Assembly: GCA_019749945.1 (NCBI GenBank)
Contig: JAIEPF010000024.1
Coordinates: 14,436-78,435 of the forward strand
Source of the DNA: Burkholderiales bacterium
GTDB taxonomy: Bacteria; Pseudomonadota; Gammaproteobacteria; Burkholderiales; SG8-41
DNA: 64,000 nucleotides
Direction of reading: 5' to 3'
Of this stretch, positions 4,599 to 61,638 are shown piece after piece (within the stretch, counting starts at the first letter, position 1; each line of letters starts with the position of its first letter). The notes below the pieces were generated by a model. It did not search any database. It was not told where the DNA came from and saw nothing but the letters and a program-made list of their open reading frames with translations. A program made the translations under genes and the position numbers.

Positions 4599-4636
4599 CA
4601 TAAAAATATCAATAAAATCAATTATTTATAATAATT
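4599..4636 (+). repeat. AT-rich dispersed element, copy E1
   Basis: cataaaaatatcaataaaatcaattatttataataatt (3 G/C in 38 nt). Matches rc of copy E7 at 34/40 positions. Ends 20 nt before the SMP-30 gene ATG. Confidence 0.8.
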
Positions 4637-4656
4637 CCTAGAGGGATCATCGCGTC

Positions 4657-5586
4657 ATGTTCAATCCGTTCAAACCGCTGGAACACATCCACGCCGAAGT
4701 CTTCACCTCCATGCCCGGAAAATTCCGCAAAAAAAGCCGCAGCAGCTGGTCGGATCCGAATCGCCAGAATGCGGAAGTGGAATGTTTCCTTGAGGCCCCC
4801 GCTTTCGACCGCGCCGGCAACCTGTTTGTCTGCGACATCCCCTTCGGCCGCATTTTCCGCATCACACCCAAGGGCGACTGGGATCTGGTGATCCAGTATG
4901 ACGGCTGGCCCAACGGCATGAAGTTCCACAAGGACGGCCGCCTGTTCATCTGCGATTACAAGGAAGGCCTGCTCACGCTGGACGTGAAGACCGGCAAGCT
5001 GGAAAACCTGCTGCGCACCGCGTACAGCGAAAGTTTCAAGGGCCTGAACGACCTGCATTTCGCATCGAACGGCGACCTCTATTTCACCGACCAGGGCCAG
5101 ACCGGCATCGCCGACCCGACCGGTCGCGTGTTCCGCCTCAAAGCCAACGGTGAGCTGCGCCGCCTGCTCGAGAACGGCCCCAGCCCCAACGGCATCACGC
5201 TGTCGACCACGGAAAAACATGTCTATGTCGGTATGACGCGTTCGAACTCGGTGTGGCGCCTGCCGCTGATGGCTGACGGCTCGGTGTCCAAAACCGGCCT
5301 CGCGATCCAGCTCTCCGGCGGCGTTGCCGGACCCGACGGCATCGAGATGGACGGTGAAAACGGTTTGCTGGTGTGCCAGCTCGGCGTGGGCATCTGGCGT
5401 TTCGATGCCAACATGCTGCCGACGCACCTCATTTCGTCGAAAAGCCACGACAAGCATCACCACCTCGACAACGTCGCCTTCGGCGGCCCCGACCACAAAC
5501 AGATTTTCATCACCGAAGCGCTGTCCGGCGATGTGCTGACGGCGAAGGTGCCCTTCGCCGGCAAAAAAATGTACGGCCACCAGTAA
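4657..5586 (+). CDS. SMP-30/gluconolactonase/LRE family lactonase
   Basis: 309 aa. Beta-propeller lactonase pattern (EAPAFDRAGNLFVCD, PNGM, NDLHF, PNGI, PDGIEMD). Confidence 0.9.
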   Translation: MFNPFKPLEHIHAEVFTSMPGKFRKKSRSSWSDPNRQNAEVECFLEAPAFDRAGNLFVCDIPFGRIFRITPKGDWDLVIQYDGWPNGMKFHKDGRLFICDYKEGLLTLDVKTGKLENLLRTAYSESFKGLNDLHFASNGDLYFTDQGQTGIADPTGRVFRLKANGELRRLLENGPSPNGITLSTTEKHVYVGMTRSNSVWRLPLMADGSVSKTGLAIQLSGGVAGPDGIEMDGENGLLVCQLGVGIWRFDANMLPTHLISSKSHDKHHHLDNVAFGGPDHKQIFITEALSGDVLTAKVPFAGKKMYGHQ

Positions 5587-5597
5587 GCCGGCTGTGC

Positions 5598-5634
5598 AAA
5601 AAAAACGGCGCACTCCCGGAGTGCGCCGTTTTGT
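5598..5634. terminator. bidirectional rho-independent terminator
   Basis: A-run, 11-bp stem ACGGCGCACTC / GAGTGCGCCGT with a 3-nt loop, then T-run, between convergent genes. Confidence 0.75.
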
Positions 5635-5651
5635 TGTGCCGGGTCTACAGC

Positions 5652-6770
5652 TCAGTGCGCCATCGTCAGGCTGTAGCGCGCAAGCTTCTCTTCGTCGAGA
5701 TCAATGCCCAGCCCGGGGCCTGATGGCAGGTCTATGCTGCCGCGGCTGATATCGAGCCGGGTCGTGGCCACGGTATCGACCACTTTCAGCGGCCCCACGC
5801 ATTCCAGTCCAGCCAGGACATTGCGCGAGGTGGCGGCGAGCATGATCTCCGCCGTCGTGCTGAGATCGAGTCCGAAACCGTGGCCCAGTACAACGGGCAG
5901 ACCTGCCGCCTCCGCGGTGGCCAGCATGCGCGAGGCCTGTAAAAAACCGCCGGCCTGCTTGATGCCGAACTTCACGTAGTCGGCGCAGTCCGCCTTGATC
6001 ACCCGGATCAGGCTTTGGTGATCGCTGATGGATTCGTCGGCCATGACGGGAATGCCGCCTTCCCGCCGAACCCGCGCCAGGCCCGCAAGATCGTCCCTGG
6101 GCGTCGGCTGCTCGAACAATTGCATATCGCAGGATTTGACGGCGCGGCACAAGGCCAGCGCCTGCTCCACGGTGCATTGCATGTTGGCGTCCATGCGCAG
6201 CTTCATGCCTTTGCCGACAGCATCCCGCACCGCCATCACCCGGGCGCTGTCCTTGCCGACATCGTTGCCGACCTTGATTTTCAGCGACTGGAATCCGGCG
6301 TCCTGCCAGCGCTTCGCTTCGGCCGCCGCCGCATCCGGCGGCAGCTCCCCGACCCAGCCGTTGAACAGCAGCCGGTCATGGACAGCGCCGCCGATGTAAT
6401 CGTACAGGGCGATGCCCCCGCGCCGGCAGACGAGCTCAATGCAAGCCAGTTCCACGCCCACCACAGCACCGGGCTGCAATGGCGTCAGCTTCGAGGCGAT
6501 CTCGACGATGCGGTTGACCTGACCCGGATCCTTCCCGATCAGGGCCGGAGCAATACGCTCACGAATGGCTGCGGCCAGCTCCGGACCGGTGTGCGGCGAC
6601 TTGGCGGTGGACGAGGGATCGATGCTGCTGATGCCGATCGCACCGTCAGCAGCCGTGACCCGCACCACAACACATTTGGTGACATTCTTGGAGACACCGC
6701 CGCTGGTAAAGGTGCCCACCAGAGGCATGCCGATGCTGAACACCTCGATTTTGCTGATCGTTGCAGTCAT
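5652..6770 (-). CDS. enolase-superfamily enzyme (mandelate racemase / muconate lactonizing / dipeptide-epimerase-like)
   Basis: 372 aa. KIKVG, LRMDAN, LFEQP and ADES motifs of the MR/MLE fold. Confidence 0.9.
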   Translation of the reverse strand: MTATISKIEVFSIGMPLVGTFTSGGVSKNVTKCVVVRVTAADGAIGISSIDPSSTAKSPHTGPELAAAIRERIAPALIGKDPGQVNRIVEIASKLTPLQPGAVVGVELACIELVCRRGGIALYDYIGGAVHDRLLFNGWVGELPPDAAAAEAKRWQDAGFQSLKIKVGNDVGKDSARVMAVRDAVGKGMKLRMDANMQCTVEQALALCRAVKSCDMQLFEQPTPRDDLAGLARVRREGGIPVMADESISDHQSLIRVIKADCADYVKFGIKQAGGFLQASRMLATAEAAGLPVVLGHGFGLDLSTTAEIMLAATSRNVLAGLECVGPLKVVDTVATTRLDISRGSIDLPSGPGLGIDLDEEKLARYSLTMAH

Positions 6771-8618: not shown

Positions 8619-8621
8619 CGC

Positions 8622-13313: not shown

Positions 13314-13742
13314 TTATTTTTTACCTGCCGCCGGACGCGATTCCGGCGGCCCCTTCAGCTCCACCACATTGCCTTCCGGATCGCTGATATACAGCGACGG
13401 TCCGTGGCCATCGGCGCCGTAGCGTGATTTGATTTCGCCCGGCACCACGCCGTGGCGGATCAGCTGCGCAGTCAGCGCGCCCGGATCAAAAGGTTCGATG
13501 CGCAGACAGAAGTGATCCATGTTGCGCCCTTCGCTGCCGGGCGCTGCACCACCCTTGCGACCGATGGCACCATCGACTGCAACCAGGTCGATCAGTGAAT
13601 TGCCGGCGCGCAATTGCGTCAGGCCGAGATCCGGCCGCTCGCGCTCCAGCGTGCAGCCCAGCACCTTGCAGTAAAACTGCACCATGCGCGGCACGTTCAC
13701 CGCGCGCAGCACAATATGGTCAAGGCCGAGGATGCTGAACAT
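13314..13742 (-). CDS. VOC (glyoxalase/bleomycin-resistance/dioxygenase) family protein
   Basis: 142 aa. LDHIVLRAVNV ... DHFCLRIE ... LYISDPEGNVVEL pattern. Confidence 0.85.
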   Translation of the reverse strand: MFSILGLDHIVLRAVNVPRMVQFYCKVLGCTLERERPDLGLTQLRAGNSLIDLVAVDGAIGRKGGAAPGSEGRNMDHFCLRIEPFDPGALTAQLIRHGVVPGEIKSRYGADGHGPSLYISDPEGNVVELKGPPESRPAAGKK

Positions 13743-13755: not shown

Positions 13756-13787
13756 CAATAAAACCGCCGCAGCAGAGGCTGCGGCGG
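13756..13787 (-). terminator. rho-independent terminator downstream of gabD
   Basis: Minus strand: CCGCCGCAGC-ctct-GCTGCGGCGG followed by TTTTATT. Confidence 0.6.
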
Positions 13788-13822: not shown

Positions 13823-13899
13823 AGTATATAAACTATTGATTTTAAAAGAAATTTTTATTAATTACCTGGTTACCTAATAACTTAGTTACTTATTAATAT
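13823..13899. repeat. AT-rich dispersed element, composite copy E2
   Basis: tatataaactattgattttaaaagaaatttttattaat plus oppositely oriented partial units (aataacttag, ttacttattaatat). Overlaps the last four codons and stop of gabD. Confidence 0.7.
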
Positions 13900-24829: not shown

Positions 24830-27800
24830 ATGGCCCGCATGACTGCAGCAGACACGATCAACCGGCGCTGGCAATTCTGGATCGACCGCGGCGGCACCTT
24901 CACTGACATCGTCGCCCGCCGCCCCGACGGCGGCTTGGTCACGCACAAGCTGCTCTCGGAAGACCCCGCGCGTTATCGTGATGCTGCGCTGGCCGGCATC
25001 CGCGACCTGCTGGGCCTGGCCCGCGACGCCGCCATTCCGGCCGGACAGATCGATGCCGTGCGCATGGGCACCACGGTGGCGACCAATGCCCTGCTCGAAC
25101 GCCGCGGCGAAGGCACCGCGCTGTTCATCACCCGCGGTTTCGGTGATGCGCTGCGCATCGCCTGGCAGAACCGCCCGCATATCTTCGACCGCCATATCGT
25201 GCTGCCGGACCTGCTCTACGAGACTGTCCGGGAAGTCGATGAACGCGTCGGCGCGCATGGCGATATCATCCGCGCGCCGGATGCCGCGGTGCTGCGCCAC
25301 GACCTCGCCGCTGCAAAGGCGCAGGGTTATCGCTCGGTCGCCATTGTGTTCATGCACGGCTACCGTTATCCGGTGCATGAACAACTCGCCGCCGCCCTCG
25401 CCCGGGAATGCGGCTTCGAACAGATTTCGGTATCCCACGAAGTCAGCCCGCTGATGAAACTGGTGGCCCGCGGTGACACCACCGTGGTCGATGCCTATCT
25501 GACGCCGGTGCTGCGGCGATATGTCGAACAGCTCGGAAACGAATTGCCGGGCACCCGCCTGCTGTTCATGCAGTCGAGCGGCGGCCTGACCGACGCGGGA
25601 CATTTCCGCGGCAAGGACAGCATCCTATCCGGCCCGGCGGGCGGCATCGTCGGCGCAGTGCGCACGGCCCTGAACGCCGGCTGTGAACACATCATCGGTT
25701 TCGACATGGGCGGCACCTCCACCGATGTCGCGCATTTTGCCGGGCACGACCTCGCTGCGCTGGAACGCACCTTCGATGCGCAGGTCGCCGGCGTACGCGT
25801 GCGCGCGCCGATGCTGGCCATCCACACCGTTGCCGCCGGCGGCGGATCGATCCCGCATTTTGACGGCGCACGCATGCGCGTCGGCCCTGATTCCGCGGGC
25901 GCCGATCCCGGCCCGGCCTGTTACGGCAAGGGCGGCCCGCTGACCATCACCGACTGCAATGTGCTGCTTGGCAAAATCCAGCCGGCGTTTTTTCCAAGGG
26001 TGTTCGGCGCCAGTGGCGACCAGCCGTTGGATGCGACCGCAGCCGAAAACCTATTTGCTGCACTGCACGATAAAATTATCAATAAAAACAATAACTTAGT
26101 GTCAATCGCTGCCATGGCCGAGGGTTATGTGCAAATCGCCGTCGAAAACATGGCCAACGCGATCAAAAAAATCTCGGTGCAGCGCGGCCACGACGTCACG
26201 GGATACACGCTGGCCTGTTTTGGCGGTGCCGCGGGCCAGCATGCCTGCCGTGTCGCCGATGCACTGGGCATGCCGCATATCTTCATCCATCCGCTGGCGG
26301 GTGTGCTGTCAGCGTACGGCATGGGCCTTGCCGACATCACGGCGATGCGCGAAGCCGCGGTCGAAGCGCCGCTGGATGCTGCAGCCATTGCGGCGCTTGA
26401 TGTGCAGGTCACAGCGCTCGGCACTGCTGCGCGCGAAGACGTCATCGCACAGGGGGTTGCGAGTGCAGCCATCCAGTTACACACAAGGGCGCACATCAAA
26501 TACGCCGGAACCGACAGTACGCTGACCGTGCCCTATGGTTCCGCAGCATCCATGCAGCAGGCCTTCATAGAACTGTATCTGCAGCGTTACAGTTTCCTGA
26601 TGCCGGAACGCGCGCTGGTCATTGAAGCGATCTCGGCGGAAGCCGTGGGCCATGGCGCCGGCGACACCGAAACCATAACGGCCGCATCCGCAACCCGGGC
26701 CCCCGCTTCTGTCGCCCGAACGAAGATGTACAGCAATGGCGCATGGCACGACGTGTCGGTCTATAAACGCGAAACACTGGCGCCCGGCCACAACATCACC
26801 GGCCCCGCCATCATCGCCGAAGCCAATGCCACCACGGTGATCGAACCCGGCTGGCAGGCTGAAGTCACGCCGCGCAATGACCTGCTGCTGAGCCGTCGCG
26901 AACCGCGCCGCGCGGCACAGGCCGGTACCACCGCGGATCCGGTGATGCTCGAGGTTTTCAACAATCTCTACATGTCGATCGCCGAACAGATGGGTGCAAC
27001 GCTGGCCAACACGGCTTATTCGGTCAACATCAAGGAGCGGCTGGATTTTTCCTGCGCGCTGTTCGATGCCCAGGGCAATCTGATCGCCAATGCGCCGCAC
27101 ATGCCCGTGCATCTGGGCTCGATGGGCGAAAGTGTCAAAGCCGTGATCAATGCCAACCGCGGCCGCATGGCGCCGGGTGATGCGTGGATGCTGAATGATC
27201 CCTATGCGGGAGGCACCCACCTGCCCGACATCACGGTGATCACGCCGGTGTTCGATGCCGGGGGCCGCGACGTGCTGTTCTATACCGGGTCGCGCGGCCA
27301 CCATGCCGACGTCGGCGGCATCACGCCCGGTTCGATGCCGCCCGACAGCCGCCACATCGACGATGAAGGCGTGCTGATTTCGAATTTTCTGCTGGTGCAG
27401 CAGGGCCGGCTGCGCGAGACCGAAACCCGCATGCTGTTTGCCTCGGCACGCCATCCGGCGCGCAACATCGACCAGAACATCGCCGACCTGCGCGCAATGA
27501 TCGCCGCCAACCACAAGGGCGCGCAGGAACTGGAACGCATGGTCGGGCACTTCGGTCTCGACGTGGTCACCGCCTACATGCGCCATGTGCAGGACAACGC
27601 CGAGGAAGCCGTGCGCCGCGTCATCGGCAAACTGCGCGACGGCAGCTTCAGTTACGAAATGGACCACGGCGCAATCATCAAGGTTGCGATCCGCGTCGAT
27701 GCCCAGGCGCGCAGCGCGGTCATCGATTTCACCGGCACATCAAAACAGGGCGAGGACAATTTCAACGCACCCTTTGCCGTGACCATGGCGGCGGTGCTGT

Positions 27801-34472: not shown

Positions 34473-34489
34473 ATGCCCGCAGATGGTTG

Positions 34490-34531: not shown

Positions 34532-34555
34532 ATTTAATAAAGGGGCCCTGCCGCC

Positions 34556-37435: not shown

Positions 37436-37478
37436 AAATATTATAAGCTATTGATTATAATAACTTTTATTCGAATTT
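37436..37478 (-). repeat. AT-rich dispersed element, copy E4
   Basis: aaatattataagctattgattataataacttttattcgaattt. Shares attataag..attg with E7 and caatag.ttata with E2. Contains the stop codon of the PrpF-like gene. Confidence 0.7.
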
Positions 37479-39835: not shown

Positions 39836-39908
39836 AACAGCAAACGCGCAAATTCCTGCGGCACCGGCCTGACCGCCGGCAACCCCGTCTTTTGCAGCAC
39901 GCATCGCC

Positions 39909-41036
39909 TTGAACCCGATTATCGTCGTCACGCTGCTGACCCTCGCCATGCAGGGCGGCCACATGGGCAGCCGCGTCGTGGCCTCCCTGCTCGCCCTGAA
40001 CCTGGGTGCCGGCCCGCTGCTGATCGGCGTCCTGATCGCCTCCTACTCGATATTCCAGCTGGGATTCGCGCTGATTGTCGGACGCATCTCCGATCGTCAC
40101 GGTTCACGCTGGCCGATGCTCGGCGGCACCATGGCGTTCGGCGCCGGGCTCATCATCCCTGCCGTGTGGCCGACATTGCCGGCGCTGTTCATCTCGGCAC
40201 CGCTGATCGGCGTCGGTTTCGTATTTTTCAACGTTGCCGTGCAAAGTCTGGCCGGCACCCTCGGCTCCGCAGCGGAACGCACTCGCAACTTTTCGACGCT
40301 GAGCCTGGGTTATTCCAGCGGCCACATGATCGGCCCGGTCATCGCCGGCGTGATGATCGATCGTTTTGGCTTCGGTTCCGCCTACATCGCCTTTGCCGTC
40401 CTCACGCTGTGTCCGATTCTCACTCTGGCATTGTCGCCGCGACTGGGTGCCAACGGCAACCGCAGCGAGCCGCAAAAGAGCAGCGCTTTCGAATTGATGC
40501 GCCTGCCTTCGCTGCGCCGGATGATCATTGTCAGCGGGCTGGTCACCACCGGCTGGGACCTCTACACGTTTTATGTGCCGATTTACGGCCATTCCATCGG
40601 CCTTTCGGCATCCACCATCGGCGCCATCCTCGGCGCTTTCGCCGCAGCGAGTTTTATTGTCCGGGTGGCGCTGCCGATGCTGACGCGTCGCTACAGCGTG
40701 GAAAGCGTGCTCGCCGCGGCCATGGGCATCGCCGCACTGCTGTTCATCCCGTTCGCCTTCATTGAATATGTGCCGGTGCTGATGGCGCTGTCCTTCGGCA
40801 TCGGCCTGACCCTCGGCGTCAGCCAGCCGCTGACCCTGAATCTGACCTACAACCGCTCCCCTGCGGGGCGTTCCGGGGAGGTCACCGGCCTCCGGCTGAC
40901 CATCAACAACATCACCCATATCGGTGTGCCGCTGGCCGCCGGCTCGGTCGGCGCGTTGCTCGGCATTGCCCCGGTGTTCTGGGCCAGCGCCGCAATCCTG
41001 CTGGTCAGCGGCTGGATGTCCCGCAACGACAAATAA
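39909..41036 (+). CDS. MFS transporter
   Basis: 375 aa (TTG start). GRISDRHGSR loop motif and multiple TM helices. Confidence 0.85.
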   Translation: MNPIIVVTLLTLAMQGGHMGSRVVASLLALNLGAGPLLIGVLIASYSIFQLGFALIVGRISDRHGSRWPMLGGTMAFGAGLIIPAVWPTLPALFISAPLIGVGFVFFNVAVQSLAGTLGSAAERTRNFSTLSLGYSSGHMIGPVIAGVMIDRFGFGSAYIAFAVLTLCPILTLALSPRLGANGNRSEPQKSSAFELMRLPSLRRMIIVSGLVTTGWDLYTFYVPIYGHSIGLSASTIGAILGAFAAASFIVRVALPMLTRRYSVESVLAAAMGIAALLFIPFAFIEYVPVLMALSFGIGLTLGVSQPLTLNLTYNRSPAGRSGEVTGLRLTINNITHIGVPLAAGSVGALLGIAPVFWASAAILLVSGWMSRNDK

Positions 41037-41066
41037 AAACGCCGCCGCGGTCAGCCGCGGCGGCGT
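41030..41066 (-). terminator. rho-independent terminator of the Bug gene (hairpin shared by convergent genes)
   Basis: 12-bp stem ACGCCGCCGCGG / CCGCGGCGGCGT. On the minus strand it is followed by TTTTTATTT. Confidence 0.6.
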
Positions 41067-41105
41067 AATGCCTGATGATGACGGCAAATATCGCCGCCGG
41101 ACTGC

Positions 41106-42089
41106 TTATTTCAACTGGATACCCGCGGCCTTGATGACCTTGCCGTACTTGTCGAGCTCGGTTTTCATCAGTGCCGTCATTTCCGCCGGGGTGTTGGTCA
41201 CCGCGCTGGCGCCGTTTTTCTCGAATTGCGCAGCCATGTCCGGTGAATTGGCGATGGCCACCAGTTCTTTTTGCAGGCGCGACAATACCGCCTTGGGCGT
41301 GCCTTTGGGCGCAAAAAATCCCAGCCACAGCGATACCTCGAATCCCGGATAACCCGACTCCGCGACTGTCGGCACATTGGGCAGCGCCGGCGAACGTTTG
41401 GAAGTCCCCACGGCGATCGGCCGCAAACGTCCGGCCTGGGCATGCGGCAATACCGCCGGCATGCTGCCGAACAGCGCCTGCACCTGTCCGCCAAGTGCGG
41501 CGGCACCCGCCGGGCCGTTGCCGCTGTAGGGGATGTGTACGATGTCCATGCCGGCGGCGCGGTTGAGCATTTCCATCGCCAGTTGCGTGGTCGAGCCGGT
41601 GCCCGCCGAGGCATAGTTCAGCTTGCCTGGCTGCGATTTGGCCAGCGCGACGAACTCCTTGAGGTTGTTGGCCTTGACGCCGGGATGCAGCACCAGCAGG
41701 TACGGCGTGGACGCCACCAGCGTGATGGGCTCGAAATCCTTGACCGGATCGTAATTCACCTTCGCATAGGCGGCGGGCGCGATGACGTGGGTGCTGGTTG
41801 TGCCCATGGTCAGCGTATGGCCATCGGGTGTCGCCTTAGCCGCGATTTCGGTGCCGATGGTGCCGCCGGCGCCGCCGCGGTTGTCAACGATGACCTGCTG
41901 CCCGAGTTTTTCGCCCAGCCGCTGCGCCACCAGACGGGCAATGATGTCGGTGGAGCCGCCCGCCGGGAAGGCCACGATCAAGCGCACGGGTTTTGTCGGG
42001 TACTGGGCAAGTCCGGATGCCGGCATCAAACCGGCGGCAACCAGCAGCGCCCCTGCCACCACGCCTGCAATTTTATTGTTCATGCTCAT
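41106..42089 (-). CDS. Bug family (TctC-like) substrate-binding protein
   Basis: 327 aa. Signal peptide, YPTKPVRLIVAFPAGGSTD and VDNRGGAGG. Confidence 0.9.
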   Translation of the reverse strand: MSMNNKIAGVVAGALLVAAGLMPASGLAQYPTKPVRLIVAFPAGGSTDIIARLVAQRLGEKLGQQVIVDNRGGAGGTIGTEIAAKATPDGHTLTMGTTSTHVIAPAAYAKVNYDPVKDFEPITLVASTPYLLVLHPGVKANNLKEFVALAKSQPGKLNYASAGTGSTTQLAMEMLNRAAGMDIVHIPYSGNGPAGAAALGGQVQALFGSMPAVLPHAQAGRLRPIAVGTSKRSPALPNVPTVAESGYPGFEVSLWLGFFAPKGTPKAVLSRLQKELVAIANSPDMAAQFEKNGASAVTNTPAEMTALMKTELDKYGKVIKAAGIQLK

Positions 42090-42102
42090 TATGGTCTCCT
42101 CA

Positions 42103-42134
42103 CAAAAAAAGCACGCGGCAAAACGCCGCGTGCT
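42103..42134 (-). terminator. rho-independent terminator after tctA
   Basis: Minus strand: AGCACGCGGC-gttt-GCCGCGTGCT followed by TTTTTTT. Confidence 0.65.
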
Positions 42135-42170
42135 TGGTTGTTACGACACAAAGGCCGCTGTTATTGACGA

Positions 42171-46796: not shown

Positions 46797-46834
46797 TATA
46801 TTATGTAACGTATTGTTTTTATTAATTATTTTAA
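46797..46834 (-). repeat. AT-rich dispersed element, copy E5
   Basis: tatattatgtaacgtattgtttttattaattattttaa carries the exact core attgtttttatt. Overlaps the last two codons and stop of the lyase gene and ends 6-15 nt before the next ATG. Confidence 0.8.
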
Positions 46835-48190
46835 CCAGCCGCTGGCGCGCTGCGCGTGCACGACTTCATCGACGATCTCCGGCGCGCGGCCGACATAGGT
46901 GGTCGGGTCGAGCGCCGCCTTCAATTCATCCGAAGTCAGCGCCGCCTTGACCTGCGCGTTCTGCATCAGCGCGCTCTCGAACGACACACCGTTCTCGATG
47001 CCGTGCATCGAGGCTTCGTAAACAAGGTCATGCGCCGTTTGTTTGCCGACCTTGTCCGACAGCACGAACATCACGCGCTCCGACAGCAGGAAACCGCCGA
47101 GACGGTCGAGATTCAGGCGCATCTGCTTCACATCGACATGCAGATCGCTCAGCACGTATTTCATCATCGCCAGCAGGCCGCCGGCCATCAGGCAGGATTC
47201 CGGAATCGCCTTCCATTCACCGCGCCAGCCCGAGCCGTCACGCTCGTGTTCGGTGACCATGCACTCCAGCATGAATGACGCGTTGTAACGCAAGGCGCGG
47301 CTGACGCCGACCACCGCCTCGCAGGTAGAGGGATTGCGTTTGTGCGGCATGGTCGATGAACCGACCTTGCCGGCGCTGAAGGGTTCAAACAATTCGCCGA
47401 TTTCGGTGTGTTCTAGATTGACGATCTCGTTGGCGATCTTGCCCAGTGTCGCGCTGATCAGGCCCAGCACATTGACGTATTCGGCAAAACGGTCGCGCGC
47501 CGGCTGCCAGTTGATGTCGGCCACACCCAGCCCCAGCCGCTTCATCAGACGTTTTTCCAGCTCCCTGGCCTGAGGACCGAACGAGGCCTGGGTGCCGACC
47601 GCCCCGACCATGCCGCCGACGAACATCCGCGGCTCGAGCTGGCGCAGCCGCTCGTAGTGCCGCCCCATTTCCGACAGCCAGATCGCGGCCTTGTGGCCGA
47701 AGGTGATCGGCAAGGCCTGAACGCCATGCGAGCGCCCCACCATCGGTGTCGCACGGTGCTCTTCGGCGAGTCTGGCCAGCGCATTGCCGATGGCCTTCAT
47801 GTCGCGCAGGTAAATCGCATGTGCATCCCTGATCTGCAGCATGGTGGCGGTGTCGAGCACGTCCTGCGTGGTCGGCCCGAAATGGATGTACTCGCCGTGT
47901 TCGGGTTTGCACAGCTTCTGCACCGCCTTCACCGCGGGCACCAGCGGATGCTTGATGCGACGGATCTCGGCGGCCACGGCGTTGATGTCGATTTTCGAGA
48001 TTTTGCAGTTGGCGGCGATTTCCTCGGCTGCCGCCTTGGGGATGATGCCCAGCGCCGCCTGTTCCAGCGCCAGCGCCGCCTCGAAATCCAGCCATTTCTG
48101 CACGCGGTTGTGCTCGTTGAATATGCCGCGCAGCTCCTCGGTGCTCCACAGGTGCTGAATCAGTGCGTCGTCAAATACTCCGGATGCCAT
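46826..48190 (-). CDS. class II fumarase/aspartase superfamily lyase (adenylosuccinate lyase / carboxymuconate cycloisomerase-like)
   Basis: 454 aa. HFGPTTQD and GSSTMPHKRNP signature. Confidence 0.85.
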   Translation of the reverse strand: MASGVFDDALIQHLWSTEELRGIFNEHNRVQKWLDFEAALALEQAALGIIPKAAAEEIAANCKISKIDINAVAAEIRRIKHPLVPAVKAVQKLCKPEHGEYIHFGPTTQDVLDTATMLQIRDAHAIYLRDMKAIGNALARLAEEHRATPMVGRSHGVQALPITFGHKAAIWLSEMGRHYERLRQLEPRMFVGGMVGAVGTQASFGPQARELEKRLMKRLGLGVADINWQPARDRFAEYVNVLGLISATLGKIANEIVNLEHTEIGELFEPFSAGKVGSSTMPHKRNPSTCEAVVGVSRALRYNASFMLECMVTEHERDGSGWRGEWKAIPESCLMAGGLLAMMKYVLSDLHVDVKQMRLNLDRLGGFLLSERVMFVLSDKVGKQTAHDLVYEASMHGIENGVSFESALMQNAQVKAALTSDELKAALDPTTYVGRAPEIVDEVVHAQRASGWLK

Positions 48191-50121: not shown

Positions 50122-50640
50122 ATGCCCGTCGTCCGCAGCTTTGCGCCGATTGCCGATGTATCGGCGCGTTTGCTGATCCTCGGCAGCATGCCCGGCATCG
50201 AATCGCTGCGCACAGGGCAGTATTACGCACATCCGCGCAACGCGTTCTGGCGCATCATGGGTGATCTTGTCGGCGCATCGCCCGAGATGCCCTATGCCGC
50301 ACGCACCCGCCGCCTGAAAAAAGCGGGAATCGCAGTGTGGGACGTGCTCGCGGCCTGCGCGCGTGAAGGCAGCCTTGATGCCGCTATCGACCGGCGTTCG
50401 ATCATCGCCAACGACCTGGTATCGTTTCTGGCGCGGCGGCCGGACATCCGCCATGTATTTTTCAACGGCGCCACGGCCGAGCGCTGCTTCCGGGTGCATG
50501 TGCAGCCCGCCCTGGAAGCCGGCGCCCTGAAACTTGTGCGCCTGCCCTCGACCAGTCCGGCCCATGCGGCGCGCGCCTACGCCGACAAACTGCAAGCCTG
50601 GCGGGTGATCCTGGAACCACTCGCAGAAAAACAAAAATAA
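50122..50640 (+). CDS. DNA-deoxyinosine (hypoxanthine) glycosylase, UDG superfamily
   Basis: 172 aa. LLILGSMPG..S......YYAHPRNAFW and LPSTSPA motifs. Confidence 0.7.
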   Translation: MPVVRSFAPIADVSARLLILGSMPGIESLRTGQYYAHPRNAFWRIMGDLVGASPEMPYAARTRRLKKAGIAVWDVLAACAREGSLDAAIDRRSIIANDLVSFLARRPDIRHVFFNGATAERCFRVHVQPALEAGALKLVRLPSTSPAHAARAYADKLQAWRVILEPLAEKQK

Positions 50641-50663
50641 TAAATAAAACAATAACTTACGAA
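50625..50663 (+). repeat. AT-rich dispersed element, copy E6
   Basis: agaaaaacaaaaataataaataaaacaataacttacgaa has a core one A shorter. Overlaps the last codons and stop of the glycosylase gene and abuts the EamA ATG. Confidence 0.7.
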
Positions 50664-51530
50664 ATGAACGCCCTGATTCTCGCCATGCTGGCCGCGCTGT
50701 GTTTCGGCGCCGGCATGATCACCTCGCGCGTCGGTTTGCGCCATGTCGATGCGCGCAGCGGCGCTGCGATCAGCATTCCCGTCGCGACGCTGCTGTTCGT
50801 CATCGCCGCACCGTTCACCGTCGAACTGTCCGCGTTCAACCTCACCGCCGCCCTGATTTTCGCGCTGGTCGGTCTGTTCTATCCCGCGCTGGTCACGCTG
50901 CTGACTTTCCGCGCCAATGAAGAACTCGGCCCCACCGTCACCAGCGCAATCTCGGGCACCGCACCGCTGTTCGCGATGCTCGCCGCAGCGTTGCTGCTGG
51001 GCGAGCAAATCCCGCCACAGGCGGCCATAGCGGCGCTGGGCGTCGCTGCCGGTGTTGCCCTGCTGTCCTGGCGCCCCGGCGCAACCCGGGGCCGGATGCC
51101 CGGCCGCGCGCTGGTGTGGCCCGTTGCCGGCGCCGTTGTGCGCGGCGTGGCGCAGGCCGGCGCCAAGGCCGGGCTGCTGCTGTGGGGCAATCCGTTTGCC
51201 GCCAGCGTGATCGGCTACCTGGTATCGTCCACCGCGGTGCTCGGCGCGGAAGGCCTGCGTCGCGGCGGGCGCAAGGCGGTCAGCCGCGACGGCCTGCTGT
51301 GGTTTGCCGCGACCGGCACCGTCAACGGGGCCGCAATGGTGCTGATGTATTCGGCACTCGCAATGGCGCCGGTATCAACGGTCGCACCGGTGATTGCCGC
51401 CTATCCGCTGGTCACCGCGCTGGCCAGCGCGCTGTTCCTGCGCGGTGAAAAAATCAGTGTGCAGATCATCTGCGGTGCCGTCATCACGGTCACAGCCATC
51501 ATTTACCTCGCCGCCTTCCGCACATCCTGA
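50664..51530 (+). CDS. EamA/DMT family transporter
   Basis: 288 aa with ten hydrophobic segments arranged as two EamA-like halves. Confidence 0.85.
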   Translation: MNALILAMLAALCFGAGMITSRVGLRHVDARSGAAISIPVATLLFVIAAPFTVELSAFNLTAALIFALVGLFYPALVTLLTFRANEELGPTVTSAISGTAPLFAMLAAALLLGEQIPPQAAIAALGVAAGVALLSWRPGATRGRMPGRALVWPVAGAVVRGVAQAGAKAGLLLWGNPFAASVIGYLVSSTAVLGAEGLRRGGRKAVSRDGLLWFAATGTVNGAAMVLMYSALAMAPVSTVAPVIAAYPLVTALASALFLRGEKISVQIICGAVITVTAIIYLAAFRTS

Positions 51531-57136: not shown

Positions 57137-57287
57137 TTTGTTGTATCCGGCTATAGTAACTATAATGCCCCTGCACATGCAATGCCGGCACTTCGGGTAT
57201 GCAGCGCAGGAAACCGGCGGGGAGCGCAGTGTCGGGCCGCCGGCCGGCCCGCGGCAAAACTGTCCAATAAATCACGGTGTTAATGCC

Positions 57288-60200
57288 ATGCACCCGCAAA
57301 CTGTCTACGCCAAGACCTCCAAGGGCGTTCTTGATTTCAAGAACAAAACCATCAAGCTCGATCGCAATGCCGGCAATATTTTTCTTTCGGTGGATGGCAA
57401 ATCGACCTTTGCCGAACTGGTGGCGAAAAGCAAAATCGCCCCCAAGGATGTCGAAGGCATACTGGATGAACTGACCAAGGCGGGTTACGTCAAGGTTTTC
57501 TCGTCCCCGGCTGCTGCTCCTGCCGCAAAACCCGCCGCCCCGGCGACACCTGCAGGGCGCGCCGCCGCCCCGGCCGCACCGGCAGCCGATGACGGCGAGA
57601 TGGATCTCGACTTCACTTCCCCCGAGGCTGTAGCCAAGGTCAATGCCGAGGCAGAAGCCCGTAAAGAGAAGGAAGCGCAGGCCAAGGCCCGCGCGCAGGC
57701 CGCGGCCAAGGCCGCAATGGAGGCCAAAGCGCGGCAGCAGGCTGAAGCCCAGGCCCGCGCCGCCGCCGAAGCCCGCGCCAAAACGGAGGCGGAAGCCAAG
57801 GCCAAGGCTGACGCTGCCGCCCGAGCCGCCGCCGAAGCCCGTGCCAAGGCGGAAGCCGAGTCCAAAGTCGCGGCAGATGCGCAGGCGAAAGCCGCGGCGG
57901 AAATCCGCCTGAAGGCGGCGCAGGAAGCCTCCGCCAGGGCAGAGGCCGAAGCCCGTGCGAGAGCGCAGTCCGAAGCCCGCGCCAAGGCCGAGGCCATTGC
58001 CAAAGCCACCTCGGAAGCCAAGGCCCGCGTCGAAGCCGAAGCGCAGGCCAAGGCCGAAGTCGAAGCCAATGCCCACGCCGCCGCCGAAACCAAGGCGCGC
58101 GAAGCGCTGGAAGCACAGATGAAAGCGATGGCTGAAGCCCTCGCCCGTGCCCAGGATTCCGCGAAACGCGAGGCCGAAGCCCGCGTCCGCATGGAAGCCG
58201 ACATCAAGGCCCGCCTCGAAGCGGAGCGCAAGGCCCTGGAAGAAGCCGAAGCCCGCGCCAAAGCCGCCGAGGAAGCGGTGGCGCAGGCGCGCCAGATGGC
58301 GGAGGAAGCGGCGCGCGCCAAAGCGGCCGCCGAAGCACGGGCGGCAACGCAAGGTTCGGATCCCGAATCCATGGCCAGGGCCACAGCAGCGATGCAGGCG
58401 CTGGAAGAAGCCAAAGCCCGGGCGCGGGCGGAAGCCGAAGCCCGCGTCGCCGCCGAAGCCCGTGCCAAAGCCGAAGCCGAAGCCCGCGCACGCGAGGAAG
58501 AGCAGCGAAGAATCGCCGCCGAAGCCGAGCAAAAAGCGCGCGCTGAAATCGAGGCCAAGGCCAATGCCGAACTGAAAGCACTGCGCGAACAGGCACGGCA
58601 GGCCTCGGCTGAAGCGGAAACCCGCGCTGCGGAAGAAAAACGCGCCCGCGAAGAAATGGAAAACCGGATCGCCGCCGAGCGCCGCGCCCGCGAGGACGCC
58701 GAAGCCAAGGTTGCCGCAGAACGTGAACTGCGCGAAGAGGCCATCCGCAAAGTACAGGCCGAGGCCGAGGCCAAGGCCCGCGCTGAAGTCGAGGCGGTGA
58801 TGGAGGTCGAACGGCGCAAACGCGAGGAAGCCGAGAAAAAAGCCCAGGCCGAGATCGCCGCGCGCACGGTGGCCGAGCGCAAGGCGCGCGAGGAAGCCGA
58901 CCGTCAGCTCGAAATCGCCCATAAAGCGCGGGAGGATGCGGAACGGCTGGCCCGCAGCGCCGGGGCCGGCGAAAGCGCGGAAAGCAAAAAAGCACGGGAG
59001 GATGCGGAATATCGCGCCCAGATGGCCGAAGCCGCGGTGGCAAAAGCCAAGGCGCAGATGGAAGTCGAGCGCCAGGCCCGCGCCCAGGCTGAAGAACGCG
59101 CCAAGGCCGAGGCCGTGGCCCGCGTGGTGCGCGAACAGGAACTGCGCGAAAGCGCTGAAAAAAGCGTCAAGTCGCGGGTGGACGAAGAATTGCGTGCCCG
59201 CGCCCGCGCCGAAATTGAAGCCGACGCGCGTTACCGTGCCGAAGCCGAGGAACGCGCCAAGGCGGCCGCCGCCGACCGCAAGCTGCGCATGGAGTCCGAG
59301 GCGCGTGATGCCGCCTCGTCTTTCCGCTCCGACAAAAAACCGCGCAGCAAGCTGGTGATGGCCGGCATCGGCCTGTTGGTGCTGGTCGCCGGCGGGCTGG
59401 GCGCCCTCCAATTCATGCCGCTCGGCAGCCATGTGCCGGCAGTGCAGGAACTGGTGTCACAGCGGTTCAAGCAGCCGGTGCGCATCAGCAACATGCGCTA
59501 CACGGTTTATCCGGAACAGGTGCTCCGCCTCGAGCAGGTCAGCGTGGGCGGCACGCAGCAGATCAAGGCCGATACCGTCAGCATCCCGATGATGCCGTGG
59601 AGCCTGCTGCTCGGCGCGCGCGAGTTCGACATCATCGCCGCCAACGCCGTCACCATTGAACCCGCGGGCATCGACCTGCTGCCGGTTATGGCAAAAGGCG
59701 CCGAAGGCGCCGCGCTGCAGATCAGCCAGTTGCGCCTGACCAACGTCAAAATCAACGGTCTTGCCATCGATGTACCGCAATTCGAGGCCCTGATCAGCTT
59801 CAGCCGCAGCGGCGCCATGCAGAAAATGCGCCTGAGCGACGGCAAAATGACCGTCAATGCCACGCCGAAGGACAACGGGCTTGCGCTGGCCATCTCGGCC
59901 AGCGAATGGCAGTTGCCGGTGGGACCGGCGCTGAACTTCAGCGACCTTTCAGTCACCGCGCAGGTGGATCAGCGGCAGGCGACGGTGAGCGCGTTCGAAG
60001 GCCGCGTCGGCGGCGGTCGCGTCAAGGGCGCGCTGAAAGCGGCATGGGCCGGCGTCATCAGTGTCGAAGGCGAATTCAATCTTGAAAACGGCCGGCTGCA
60101 GGAACTGATGCCCGCCTACACCCGCGATTTTTCAGCCAACGGCTCGATCAGTGCGAACGGCAGTTATGCGCTGCAGGGGAAAACCCTGAAAACGCTGTTC

Positions 60201-60542
60201 GATGCCAGCGCCGCGGAAGCTTCGTTCACCATCAGCACCGGTGAACTGATGAATATCGACGTGGTGCGTGCGATCCAGGCGCCTTCAGCCAGCGGTACCC
60301 GTGGCGGCAAAACCCGGTTTGACACGCTGAGCGGCGCGCTCAGCATCAGCGGCGGCCGCTACAACTACAAACAGCTGCAACTGAATTCCGGCCCGCTCAA
60401 TGCCAGCGGCGCGATTGCCGTCGGTGACGGCGGAGCGCTTTCGGGCCGCATCAATGCGGAACTCGGCTCCAAGGGCCTGGTGGTGGCCCGCGGCGGCCTG
60501 TCGGTTGCCGGCGCGGTCCGCGATCCGCTGCTGCGGCCCTGA
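57288..60542 (+). CDS. large membrane-anchored protein: N-terminal ~70-aa module, Ala/Pro linker, ~570-aa A/E/R/K-rich coiled coil, one TM helix, C-terminal AsmA-like domain
   Basis: 1084 aa from ATG 57288. The repeat region runs about 57615-59330 (AEARAKAEAE...). The TM helix LVMAGIGLLVLVAGGLGALQF lies at about 59350-59415. The C-terminal G-rich beta-type domain resembles AsmA-family tails (tentative). Confidence 0.8.
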   Translation: MHPQTVYAKTSKGVLDFKNKTIKLDRNAGNIFLSVDGKSTFAELVAKSKIAPKDVEGILDELTKAGYVKVFSSPAAAPAAKPAAPATPAGRAAAPAAPAADDGEMDLDFTSPEAVAKVNAEAEARKEKEAQAKARAQAAAKAAMEAKARQQAEAQARAAAEARAKTEAEAKAKADAAARAAAEARAKAEAESKVAADAQAKAAAEIRLKAAQEASARAEAEARARAQSEARAKAEAIAKATSEAKARVEAEAQAKAEVEANAHAAAETKAREALEAQMKAMAEALARAQDSAKREAEARVRMEADIKARLEAERKALEEAEARAKAAEEAVAQARQMAEEAARAKAAAEARAATQGSDPESMARATAAMQALEEAKARARAEAEARVAAEARAKAEAEARAREEEQRRIAAEAEQKARAEIEAKANAELKALREQARQASAEAETRAAEEKRAREEMENRIAAERRAREDAEAKVAAERELREEAIRKVQAEAEAKARAEVEAVMEVERRKREEAEKKAQAEIAARTVAERKAREEADRQLEIAHKAREDAERLARSAGAGESAESKKAREDAEYRAQMAEAAVAKAKAQMEVERQARAQAEERAKAEAVARVVREQELRESAEKSVKSRVDEELRARARAEIEADARYRAEAEERAKAAAADRKLRMESEARDAASSFRSDKKPRSKLVMAGIGLLVLVAGGLGALQFMPLGSHVPAVQELVSQRFKQPVRISNMRYTVYPEQVLRLEQVSVGGTQQIKADTVSIPMMPWSLLLGAREFDIIAANAVTIEPAGIDLLPVMAKGAEGAALQISQLRLTNVKINGLAIDVPQFEALISFSRSGAMQKMRLSDGKMTVNATPKDNGLALAISASEWQLPVGPALNFSDLSVTAQVDQRQATVSAFEGRVGGGRVKGALKAAWAGVISVEGEFNLENGRLQELMPAYTRDFSANGSISANGSYALQGKTLKTLFDASAAEASFTISTGELMNIDVVRAIQAPSASGTRGGKTRFDTLSGALSISGGRYNYKQLQLNSGPLNASGAIAVGDGGALSGRINAELGSKGLVVARGGLSVAGAVRDPLLRP

Positions 60543-60560
60543 GCCGCTGTCGCCACAAAC

Positions 60561-60593
60561 AAAAGCCCGCGCCGTACAGCGCGGGCTTTTTTG
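60561..60593. terminator. bidirectional rho-independent terminator
   Basis: AAAA-AGCCCGCGC-cgtaca-GCGCGGGCT-TTTTT between convergent genes. Confidence 0.8.
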
Positions 60594-60627
60594 TTGCTGA
60601 ACGAACCGCTGCCGCTTGTCCTGCCGC

Positions 60628-61515
60628 TTATTGCGCCCCGGACTGCGCGGCGCGCAGCGCGGCGATGCGCACATCCAGCGGCGGATGCGACATGAACAGC
60701 GCCATCATTCCGCCGCCGCCCGAAATGCCGAAGGCCGACATCTGCGCGGGCAAGGACGTCTGGTCATGGTTCATTTTCAGGCGCTCCAGCGCGGCGATCA
60801 TCTTCTGCCGGCCGGCCAGTTCGGCGCCGCCGGCATCGGCACGGAATTCTCGCTGGCGGCTGACCCAAGCCACCACCATGCTCGCCAGCACGCCGAGCAC
60901 CATTTGCGCAACAAAGGTGGCGACAAAAAATCCTATGCCCTGACCGCGCTCATTTTTCAGCAGCACGCGGTCGACGAAGAAACCGATCACGCGCGAGAAG
61001 AAGAGCACGAAGGTGTTCACCACGCCCTGCACCAGCGTCAGCGTCACCATGTCGCCGTTGGCGACATGGCTGATTTCATGTCCGAGCACGGCCTCCGCCT
61101 CGTCCTGCGACATGTTGTTGAGCAGGCCGGTGCTGACCGCCACCAGCGCGTCGTTGCGGTTCCAGCCGGTGGCGAAGGCGTTGATGTCCGGGGCGTCGTA
61201 AATCGCCACTTCCGGCATGCCGATGCCGGCGCGTTCCGCCTGACGCTTGACGGTATCCACCAGCCAGCGCTCGGTGGTATTGGCGGGCACTTCGATCACC
61301 CGGGCGCCCGTCGCACTTTTGGCCATCCACTTCGAGATCAGCAGCGAAATGAACGCGCCGCCGAAGCCGAAGAGCGCCGCGAAGACCAGCAGGCCCTGCA
61401 GATTGAGACCGGTCTCGTTTTCCAGCGCAGCGTCGATGCCCAGCAACTGCATGGTCACACTGAGTACCGCGAGTATCGCGAAGTTGGTGACGATCAGCAG
61501 AAAGACACGTTTCAT
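60628..61515 (-). CDS. htpX: zinc metalloprotease HtpX
   Basis: 295 aa. [10 protein letters not shown] (HExxH), four TM segments and typical HtpX N- and C-termini. Confidence 0.95.
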
Positions 61516-61598
61516 GGCTTTTCAAACCCCCGGATGGTTGAACACGCAGCATTAGATAGGGGCGAAGTACACAAGTTCAAGATGCCCCTGGCCCCCGA

Positions 61599-61638
61599 GT
61601 ATTAATTATAAGTAATTGTTTTTATTCATATTTTTATG
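61599..61638 (-). repeat. AT-rich dispersed element, copy E7
   Basis: gtattaattataagtaattgtttttattcatatttttatg (5 G/C in 40 nt). Its rc matches E1 at 34/40. Overlaps the stop of the dtd remnant and lies about 84 nt upstream of the htpX ATG. Confidence 0.8.

Follow-up and report, generated by a model that had tools for sequence, protein, structure and literature searches.

AT-rich elements recurring in a G+C-rich betaproteobacterial genome: probable strong IHF binding sites kept at fixed positions

Seven AT-rich elements (E1 to E7) are dispersed over the window, by which we mean the whole 64,000-nucleotide stretch of Burkholderiales DNA that was analysed. We consider it probable that they are strong binding sites for the DNA-bending protein IHF (integration host factor), kept by selection at fixed places. 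On this reading the elements are a known kind of site, which is unusually stereotyped and frequent (~1 per 6 kb) in this uncultured betaproteobacterial lineage. From their anatomy, their conservation in relatives, the lack of insertion and their resemblance to the IHF sites of phage lambda we infer IHF binding and its effect. The original prediction, made from the DNA sequence of the window, had offered three roles for the elements, and the evidence favours one of these, a landing pad for a nucleoid protein, with IHF named among the candidates.

Anatomy and distribution of the elements

All seven AT-rich stretches were found where the original prediction had placed them. They share the core AANCAATNNNTTA, which the 64 kb window contains at exactly seven positions (4616+, 13829-, 26086+, 37444-, 46806-, 50647+ and 61609-). 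The number expected by chance was 0.12 when the window was shuffled by dinucleotides, and 0.04 when bases were shuffled only inside the AT-rich islands, thus the core motif is not a by-product of AT-richness. The identities given earlier between E1 and the reverse complement of E7 (34/40) and between E3 and the reverse complement of E7 (27/34) were reproduced. Some details had to be corrected: the G+C content, put at 3-5 per 40 nt, was measured as 3-7 per ~40 nt, and E6, described as having a one-base variant of the shared 12-mer, shows a one-base shift with no substitution. E2 had been called composite; the motif itself occupies the minus-strand interval listed in Table 1, and the remainder of the 77-nt stretch is other AT-rich sequence. 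The elements do lie at gene boundaries, as proposed, with the exception of E3, which is inside the 5-oxoprolinase ORF (24830-28465). With 27 sites in 151.6 kb the density is ~1 per 5.6 kb, the range quoted extending up to ~1 per 10 kb, and the spacing of E1 to E7 in the window is more even than chance (CV 0.32, P ~0.006-0.012).

A canonical IHF site is described by four listed features: a tract of 4-6 A in the 5' half, two ApA steps 9 bp apart at which prolines intercalate, WATCAA, and TTR four base pairs 3' of it (PMC1874591). Each copy of the element is ~34 bp long and has the canonical features at the right spacing, namely an A4-5 tract, an ApA pair 9 bp apart, WATCAA and TTR (consensus TCAATAAAAWCAATNNNTTA). 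WATCAA is matched with 0 or 1 mismatch in the seven copies: it is exact in E1, E2 and E4, and reads AAACAA in E3, E5, E6 and E7. The sole mismatch is A for T at position 3, a position which is W in the E. coli in vivo IHF motif WAWCAACnnnTT, so A is allowed there (PMC8407004). The IHF-like word noticed earlier, WATCAANNNNTTR, is indeed exact in E1, E2 (minus strand) and E4. TTA stands four bases 3' of WATCAA in all seven copies. An ApA step is found 9 bp upstream of the CAA step in five of the seven (E1, E3, E5, E6 and E7), the dinucleotide being TT in E2 and AT in E4; among relatives the 9-bp repeat TCAAT...WCAAT is the rule. The A4-A5 run ends 8-10 nt before the W position in 7/7 copies (8 nt in lambda H'); of the two A5 runs of E6 the second, chosen by eye, ends 9 nt before W, the first, picked by the script, 15 nt before it. 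The most conserved positions are C-A-A, the TT-A four bases on and the 9-bp ApA pair, and the motif is strictly asymmetric.

Table 1. Elements and neighbouring features in the window.
Feature	Position	Strand	Description	Score or basis
E1	4596..4628	+	full-consensus IHF-type site: A5 tract, ApA pair 9 bp apart, AATCAA, TTAT, TTA	27.5 bits
Intrinsic terminator	13757..13787	-	G+C-rich hairpin and T run, CCGCCGCAG...CTGCGGCGGTTTTATT	read from sequence
E2	13829..13861	-	IHF-type site, AATCAA TAGT TTA	10.8 bits
E3	26066..26098	+	IHF-type site, in frame within 5-oxoprolinase gene (10 codons)	30.7 bits
E4	37444..37476	-	IHF-type site immediately past prpF stop codon	18.1 bits
E5	46806..46838	-	IHF-type site	27.7 bits
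E6	50627..50659	+	IHF-type site	19.1 bits
Weaker G+C-containing site of the same type	57250..57282	+	AATCAC GGTG TTA	13.0 bits
htpX sigma-32-type promoter	61554..61581	-	CTTGAAC, 12 nt, CCCCTATCT	
E7	61609..61641	-	IHF-type site	31.2 bits

The surroundings of the elements differ. E1 lies between two divergent genes, one for an alpha/beta-hydrolase (-) and one for an SMP-30/gluconolactonase (+); the ATG of the latter is 28 nt past the TTA. E2 lies 25 nt past an aldehyde dehydrogenase stop codon and is followed by the intrinsic terminator, situated between E2 and the next start codon, and then by a glyoxalase-family gene. E3 takes the place of an equal-length variable loop of 5-oxoprolinase, and the protein aligns to its homologues free of gaps. 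The genes flanking E4, prpF (-) and DUF533/TerB (+), are convergent. E5 fills the spacer between the stop codon of an adenylosuccinate-lyase-family gene and the start of a 2-hydroxyacid dehydrogenase gene (ATG 23 nt past the TTA). E6 and the 3' end of a uracil-DNA-glycosylase-family gene overlap, and the first EamA transporter ATG follows 4 nt past the site. The 5' part of E7 forms the last codons and the stop of the upstream gene, which was called D-aminoacyl-tRNA-deacylase-like (dtd-like) on the strength of its C-terminal sequence rather than by a family search. The weaker site is 5 nt 5' of the start of a gene for a long Ala/Glu/Lys-rich protein, and is kept in locus L001 (14175, 13.9 bits). 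Crude gene calls based on GC3 were noisy; where the assignment was important it was taken from Pfam or from the annotation that came with the contigs.

Conservation in relatives and the htpX locus

E3, E4, E5 and E7 are kept at orthologous positions in relatives, where their non-consensus bases drift. E3 is conserved inside the gene in L208, L209, L211 and L212, including synonymous sites and rare codons; orthologues of E4 follow prpF in L202-L207 and L212, those of E5 were found in L002, L204, L205 and L207, and those of E7 in six genomes. The exact HtpX sequence of the window had no entry on record; the closest HtpX relative found was a MAG with 94% HtpX identity, and orthologous copies persist down to ~70% HtpX identity between genomes, with only the consensus positions kept. 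Where the conserved sites vary (the E4 and E5 orthologues of L205/L207 and L212), TTA becomes TTG and no pyrimidine is seen in the final position, in keeping with TTR. This conservation speaks for purifying selection on the sites at the DNA level. Such stable inheritance at orthologous positions does not agree with the proposal that the elements are scars of a site-specific process. The comparison of orthologous loci gave no clean pair of empty and filled sites; a site at 4213 in L001 has no counterpart in the window, and L002 has no match to E6, to the EamA gene or to the 3' part of the uracil-DNA-glycosylase-family ORF.

E7 has as its neighbour, outside the AT-rich element, a sigma-32-type promoter of htpX (Table 1), which was identified by the sigma-32 consensus and is conserved in most htpX loci examined. 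The TTA of E7 is 27 nt upstream of the -35 of this heat-shock promoter, and in the orthologues it is 26-28 nt from the TTGAAC of the sigma-32 -35, the sequence of the spacer being unrelated. The centre of the site is ~75-80 bp upstream of the inferred sigma-32 start, and this distance is conserved. The geometry would suit an architectural activator by which the DNA further upstream is folded back to reach RNA polymerase.

Among 80 proteobacterial htpX loci the strong sites are limited to one lineage; other proteobacterial htpX loci of similar G+C content, which are expected to have IHF, contain no such strong sites. IHF is near-universal in Proteobacteria, and for this reason we assume that it is present in the lineage; ihfA and ihfB are absent from the window and from loci L001-L080. 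Nearly all sites that the focal lineage has in co-directional spacers run in the direction of transcription, which is not required by IHF binding alone. Related high-density contigs have both orientations in co-directional spacers, which fits a double-stranded DNA site: the copies at 7266-7298 of L092 (31.1 bits) and at 12849-12881 of L169 (28.5 bits) run antisense to the genes on either side, Pfam having confirmed the strands of these genes.

As a separate observation, in some metagenome loci the motif abuts tRNA-like 3' ends. By eye these ends are 3' fragments of tRNA genes and resemble attachment-site remnants; no adjoining tRNA gene was found in these loci by ARAGORN or by Rfam at gathering thresholds. 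Attachment-site remnants would fit IHF sites beside integrase cores.

Comparison with known IHF sites and alternative explanations

A 33-column weight matrix made from the elements was run over both strands of the whole phage lambda genome, 97 kb of sequence in all. The top matches were 35741-35773 (TCAATAAATACAATTGGTTA) upstream of pL, 74-106 (AAATAAAAACATTAAGTTA) in cosB just past R3, 27675-27716 (TATCAATATATTA), the H2 site beside the attP core, and 35651-35683 at about -86 from pL. The cosB match falls at the position of the IHF site I1 (PMC4669245), and the sequences of I1 and of 35741-35773 are close to the element consensus. Lambda pL, like the htpX locus, has an IHF site placed upstream of the promoter at about -80. 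Like the IHF sites of E. coli and of lambda (attP H', H1 and H2, cosB I1 and those upstream of pL), the elements are ~34-bp asymmetric sites with a 5' A-tract, an ApA pair 9 bp apart, WATCAA, four bases and TTR; unlike them, the elements have the whole footprint made up of A+T and nearly invariant, and they come back at intervals of ~6 kb in a genome of 62% G+C. The original prediction had not recognised the element. This stands as far as repeat families are concerned, a literature search for 12-13-mers of the motif having returned only unrelated primers and the like and, in the papers covered, no described repeat family with the sequence, but not for the motif, which is close to the known IHF sites of lambda.

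A 50-kb stretch of E. coli including the oriC IHF site reached a maximum of 13.8 bits with a uniform background and 10.5 bits with an AT-rich background, whereas the elements score 18-31 bits with the AT-rich background and vary far less among themselves than typical IHF sites of E. coli do. E. coli is reported to have "thousands" of IHF sites (PMC8407004), and the density found here is of that order. The information content of the element is ~30 bits, or 20 bits against an AT-rich background, and ~13.5 bits would be enough at this density. The excess is partly due to ascertainment, and the remainder leaves room for a second constraint or another protein. A different nucleoid protein that reads AT tracts, such as an H-NS-like protein, Fis, Lrp or a lineage-specific factor, would make the likeness to IHF sites partly a coincidence. 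TCAATAAAAT matches 8/10 positions of the H-NS high-affinity motif, TCGATAAATT, and both the stereotypy relative to E. coli and the restriction of strong sites to one lineage among the 80 htpX loci would be easier to accommodate in this way. We consider it improbable nevertheless: the most conserved positions are those that define IHF sites and fall outside the H-NS, Fis and Lrp motifs, the strict asymmetry is unlike the Fis and Lrp motifs, and the matrix puts the lambda IHF sites first in the sequence scanned.

It was also suggested that the elements are portable promoters. They would then be modules in which the A-tract serves as UP element and a -10 hexamer starts at the conserved TTA, driving the downstream co-oriented gene. 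In the focal lineage a co-oriented start codon lies ahead of most copies, TATAAT does follow the core in E1, E4 and E7 as had been noted, and start codons lie 4-33 nt past the TTA in E1, E5, E6 and at L001 1174, L002 18048 and L006 7468, where leaders would be short. Sigma-70 UP elements and A-tract upstream activators resemble the elements in being A-rich, orientation-dependent and upstream of genes, in some copies with TATAAT following. Such a function is, however, unlikely. No -35/-10 pair was found for E1 or E7, and the window has at least one canonical promoter-like sequence elsewhere (TTGACA, 17 nt, TATATT at ~34480-34510); with the -35 absent and the would-be T at -7 not enriched (11/28 G+C-rich metagenome copies), TTA as the start of a -10 hexamer was rejected. 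E4 and its orthologues face a convergent gene and a terminator separates E2 from the next gene, therefore the elements are not generic promoters. E3 is intragenic, htpX has its own sigma-32 promoter downstream of E7, the site there being beyond the UP zone (-40 to -60), the high-scoring L092 and L169 copies point against both flanking genes, and copies are kept where there is no downstream gene to drive.

Another alternative is that the motif acts in RNA, as an A/U-rich signal in 3' UTRs or intercistronic spacers, e.g. a cleavage site or an enhancer of translation of the next gene. With the exception of E1, all window copies are in the sense orientation relative to a gene that flanks or encloses them. 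E2, E4, E5, E6 and E7 start no more than 25 nt from a co-oriented stop codon, and several copies end 20-30 nt ahead of a start codon. A sense-strand RNA motif was considered for the orientation bias and is weakened by the antisense copies in L092 and L169. Moreover, the htpX site precedes the promoter by a constant length of DNA, the pattern of conserved positions agrees with a map of protein-DNA contacts, and avoidance of U-runs within operons may explain the sense-strand bias, which makes a function in RNA highly improbable.

The elements were originally regarded as a dispersed repeat family or portable cassette, and they might be copies of a miniature repeat, mobile or spread by gene conversion, that carries an IHF site, like RIP/BIME-1 of E. 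coli or Correia of Neisseria. In RIP/RIB and Correia too the IHF site recurs extragenically, and its frequent location past a gene's 3' end or between two convergent genes is like that of E2 and E4. The identity of E1 and E7 is above that of E7 and its L001 orthologue, relatives differ in the sites that they have (the one at L001 4213; E6 and EamA unmatched in L002), and the information content is above the need. Yet RIP/RIB and Correia act as repeat units and have palindromic REP units or terminal inverted repeats at their borders, whereas here sharing stops at the ~34-bp IHF footprint. In agreement with the original prediction, there are no target-site duplications (no flanking direct repeats of at least 6 nt) and no inverted ends or flanking palindromic units, terminal 12-mers matching at only 2-7/12 positions. 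Together with the protein alignment of E3, in which the element replaces a loop of the same length rather than being inserted, this led us to reject an insertion or MITE. Furthermore, the orthologues keep their consensus positions only, both cases of presence and absence coincide with differences in neighbouring genes, and the likeness of E1 and E7 is, by estimate rather than formal test, roughly that to be expected of the most similar among 21 pairs written in a two-letter alphabet. We therefore think a mobile repeat very unlikely. A DNA uptake signal sequence was rejected too; such signals are short, occur ~1 per kb and are common in genes, whereas the elements are 34 bp, occur ~1 per 5.6-9 kb and are almost entirely extragenic.

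Possible role and significance

If the elements are IHF sites, the protein, a heterodimer of IhfA and IhfB, would recognise the 3' half (WATCAA, four bases, TTR) and kink the DNA at the two ApA steps 9 bp apart, aided by the A-tract in the 5' half, and the outcome would be a U-turn of the DNA. The mutual likeness of the sites would then reflect convergence on the optimum of one protein, not copying, and selection would hold them in place, whether past a stop codon, in the spacer between two cistrons, 5' of a promoter or, in one case, within a coding loop. The role of E2, E4 and E3 is probably architectural for the chromosome rather than gene-specific. It is conceivable, if rather unlikely, that the near-perfect super-consensus IHF-type sites form a genome-wide set which serves as anchors for chromosome folding, or is read by IHF and a second factor, and not for ordinary gene-by-gene regulation; this suggestion comes from the even spacing, the upkeep inside a coding loop and between convergent genes, and the about twofold excess over the information needed.

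The stereotypy and density of the sites are unusual, and do not by themselves demand a new mechanism. If our interpretation as IHF sites is true, the elements would not be a new class, they would be a clean natural example of strong selection on an architectural DNA site: the same 24 bases are fixed in a coding gene, where rare codons and a constrained peptide are the price, and the site after prpF persists regardless of the neighbouring gene. The analysis also points to a conserved pairing of an IHF-type site with the htpX sigma-32 promoter. AT islands in a G+C-rich genome would then be a marker for mapping the IHF regulon of unculturable lineages.

A common core in the AT-rich elements and its gene contexts

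The seven AT-rich stretches of the original prediction were all found at the coordinates given for them in the window (62.3% G+C), and once E2, E4, E5 and E7 are reverse-complemented, so that every copy runs the same way, they have the common core AANCAATNNNTTA. This core matches the window seven times, whereas 0.12 matches are expected from dinucleotide shuffles of the window, and 0.04 when base shuffling is confined to its 12 AT-rich islands. The latter value shows that the motif is not a by-product of AT content. The identities quoted earlier were correct (34/40 for E1 and 27/34 for E3, both against the reverse complement of E7), and we likewise saw neither terminal inverted repeats nor duplications in the flanks of E1-E7. 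The elements are AT-rich as described, with 3-7 rather than 3-5 G/C per ~40 nt. The E2 stretch exists, only half of its 77 nt belongs to the motif, which is on the minus strand, and what had been taken for a one-base variant of a recurrent 12-mer in E6 is a one-base shift. The placement at gene boundaries had to be corrected for E3, which lies within a gene. The contexts were derived from Pfam scans and from gene calls supplied with the related contigs.

AT-rich elements (core positions) and associated features in window coordinates
Feature	Position	Strand	Context or composition
E1	4616	+	divergent spacer; ATG of SMP-30-family gene 28 nt past TTA
Terminator beyond E2	13757-13787		G+C hairpin and T-run, before glyoxalase-family gene
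E2	13829	-	3' of aldehyde dehydrogenase stop codon; followed by terminator, then glyoxalase-family gene
E3	26086	+	in frame within 1,211-codon 5-oxoprolinase gene; codes for 10 residues
E4	37444	-	immediately 3' of prpF stop codon; faces convergent DUF533/TerB gene
E5	46806	-	whole spacer between lyase-family and 2-hydroxyacid dehydrogenase genes
E6	50647	+	overlaps end of UDG-family gene; finishes 4 nt before first ATG of EamA gene
Sigma-32-type htpX promoter	61554-61581	-	CTTGAAC and CCCCATCT
E7	61609	-	upstream of htpX; includes last three codons and stop codon of upstream gene

The gene upstream of E7, judged from its C-terminal sequence alone, looks like a putative D-aminoacyl-tRNA deacylase gene (dtd). 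At E6, blastn showed that the close relative L002 has 128 bp (13470-13598) where the window has ~1.2 kb (50271-51504); L002 lacks a counterpart to E6, to the EamA gene and to the 3' portion of the UDG-family ORF. These close relatives differ here in gene content, and the site is part of the difference. The A-over-T skew of 0.64 at 58-59 kb is due to the gene 57288-60542 (+), whose ~1,085-residue product has no Pfam match. It contains ~600 residues of Ala/Glu/Lys/Arg-rich repeats, which look like a possible coiled coil, followed by a hydrophobic segment and then a domain at the C-terminus.

Resemblance to IHF sites and other readings of the motif

The canonical site of the DNA-bending protein IHF (integration host factor) is ~34 bp long, with WATCAA (W is A or T) near its centre and, after four more bases on the 3' side, TTR (R is A or G); its 5' half holds a run of 4-6 A, and prolines intercalate at two ApA steps that are nine bp apart (PMC1874591). 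All seven elements fit this anatomy, and they equal the IHF footprint in size (~40 bp). They have no or one mismatch to WATCAA, always A for T in position 3, and the motif determined for IHF in E. coli in vivo, WAWCAACnnnTT, likewise shows A there (PMC8407004). TTA is present in all copies, the ApA step 9 bp upstream in five of the seven (seen as the TCAAT...WCAAT periodicity), and the distance from the end of a run of 4-5 A to the W position is 8-10 nt, compared with 8 nt in lambda H'.

As an independent test, both strands of phage lambda were scanned with a 33-column weight matrix made from the elements. The best four matches were 35741-35773, 74-106, 27675-27716 and 35651-35683. The first is upstream of the leftward pL promoter and the fourth ~86 bp upstream of it; we take them to be the IHF sites L1 and L2 of Giladi et al. 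The third, TATCAATATATTA, is beside the attP core (27724-27738) and is the H2 site. The second falls in cosB just beyond R3, and the I1 IHF site sits between R3 and R2 of cosB (PMC4669245). When composition was discounted by use of an AT-rich background, 35741-35773 and 74-106 still ranked first and second in lambda. On the same background the elements score 18-31 bits, compared with a maximum of 10.5 bits (13.8 with a uniform background) in a 50-kb E. coli stretch including oriC; typical E. coli IHF sites are much farther from the ideal than the elements. The information content is ~30 bits, or 20 against an AT-rich background, a figure inflated by counting strong sites alone, whereas ~13.5 bits are needed at the observed density. 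The genes ihfA and ihfB were not found in the window or in 80 proteobacterial htpX loci.

Other explanations of the motif were considered. The E3 stretch aligned without gaps to 14 homologues (61-70% identity) and takes the place of a poorly conserved loop of equal length in 5-oxoprolinase homologues, thus E3 is not an insertion. This, and the failure to find sequence common to the copies beyond ~34 bp, argue against a mobile repeat. The motif was not accepted as a promoter either: a consensus scan of E1 and E7 found no pair of -35 and -10 elements, and T occupied the would-be -7 position in only 11 of 28 G+C-rich metagenome copies among the matches listed. Moreover, E3 lies within a gene, a terminator follows E2, the gene faced by E4 and its orthologues is convergent, and htpX already has a promoter of its own. 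Read by eye, TTGACA, 17 nt, TATATT at ~34480-34534 of the window looks like a canonical promoter and overlaps the Fur-box-like GATAATCATTCTCATT (34519-34534). By synteny with the related contig L202, this AT island, from which the IHF-type motif is absent, would separate a LysR-family gene from a divergent CMD-like/hemP pair. In co-directional spacers of the focal lineage the sites are nearly all co-oriented with transcription, often starting at the upstream stop codon, which raised the possibility that the motif acts at the RNA level. However, on two other high-density contigs (L092, 7266-7298, 31.1 bits; L169, 12849-12881, 28.5 bits) strong sites are antisense to both flanking genes, whose strands were confirmed with Pfam. 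A double-stranded DNA site explains the occurrence of both orientations, and the bias in the focal lineage may have arisen because U-runs are avoided within operons.

Conservation and density in related genomes

Scanning species-representative genomes with HtpX yielded 80 loci, the closest from uncultured Betaproteobacteria/Burkholderiales MAGs (HtpX identity 94% for L001, 89% for L002 and ~70% for L003, L006 and L007). In the window and these five relatives E7 or its counterpart lies just upstream of a sigma-32-type promoter, with 26-28 nt between TTA, the last conserved triplet of the motif, and TTGAAC of the -35 element; the DNA in between is unrelated and the upstream gene varies between genomes. 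The AT-rich site is absent upstream of htpX in L004, L005, L008 and L042. The consensus of sigma-32 promoters is well established, and CTTGAAC, 12-15 nt, CCCCATCT was found upstream of htpX in most of 19 loci. This promoter is kept across very distant Proteobacteria; the IHF-type site is limited to one lineage.

Orthologues of E5 were found in L002 (by synteny) and in the related contigs L204, L205 and L207. E4 has orthologues immediately 3' of prpF in L202 and L203 (98% PrpF identity), L204 (94%) and L205-L207 (91%), and in L212, which has another gene as convergent neighbour. In L205-L207 a strong hairpin terminator (AAAACGGGCGCCCGGCGCCCGTTTTT; L205 11217-11290) comes after the site, so the order of stop codon, site and terminator after prpF is that of E2 in the window. 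E3 is conserved in the oxoprolinase genes of L208, L209 and L211 (89% protein identity; ATT ATC AAT AAA AAC AAT TAC TTA) and of L212 (90%; ATT GTT AAT AAA AAC AAT AAC TTA). Its synonymous positions are unchanged and the adjoining codons vary freely; it uses TTA, AAT, AAA and ATT codons though the third positions of the gene are 77% G+C. The comparison of orthologous loci proposed originally thus gave the same picture in every case: consensus positions are retained, N positions drift, and the last base of TTA varies only to G (E4/E5 orthologues of L205/L207 and L212).

In the window and the five relatives, the motif or a close variant occurs in 26 of 34 AT-rich islands (our count). Among the 80 loci, sites of at least 18 bits were found only in these five nearest relatives; with the window they amount to 27 sites in 151.6 kb, ~1 per 5.6 kb. 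The intervals between the window sites (9.2, 12.3, 11.4, 9.4, 3.8 and 11.0 kb; CV 0.32) are more even than chance (post hoc P ~0.006 for random placement, ~0.012 among AT islands); regular spacing was not seen in L003 and L006. In a metagenome scan, a 20-mer version of the motif matched at least 120 loci. Among the matches listed, more than 40 are on contigs with a G+C content of 53% or more, in which matches by chance are negligible, and some of these contigs have two or three sites. Genes of TctC (Bug-family) periplasmic receptors are very numerous in L092, L169, L202-L212 and the window (39873-42140), which points to a Burkholderiales-like lineage; several IHF-type sites adjoin them.

Two further observations concern the metagenome contigs. 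In L153 (~875-920) and L174 (~2410-2460, minus strand) the motif is, by eye, 7-10 nt from a tRNA-like 3' half, an arrangement reminiscent of what an integrated element leaves of its attachment site, with an IHF site adjoining; neither ARAGORN nor Rfam called a tRNA at these loci. L163 (660-800), L192 (2735-2875) and L149 (2090-2230) have one conserved region in common, in which the G+C-rich sequences on either side of the 20-mer (cctcctg...gggaggcagg) are complementary, suggestive of a structured RNA. It had no Rfam match at gathering thresholds and is probably unrelated to the IHF-type sites.

Significance of the sites

We consider it quite probable that E1-E7 are full-consensus IHF binding sites, in line with one of the roles suggested from their sequence, and that they are kept by selection. 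At htpX the centre of the site precedes the inferred sigma-32 start by ~75-80 bp, and this distance is conserved; the geometry is like that of lambda pL, where according to Giladi et al. IHF reportedly stimulates transcription via the alpha subunit and a distant UP element. The kind of site is already known; it is notable here for its stereotypy and density, and at E3 a DNA site clearly constrains coding sequence.
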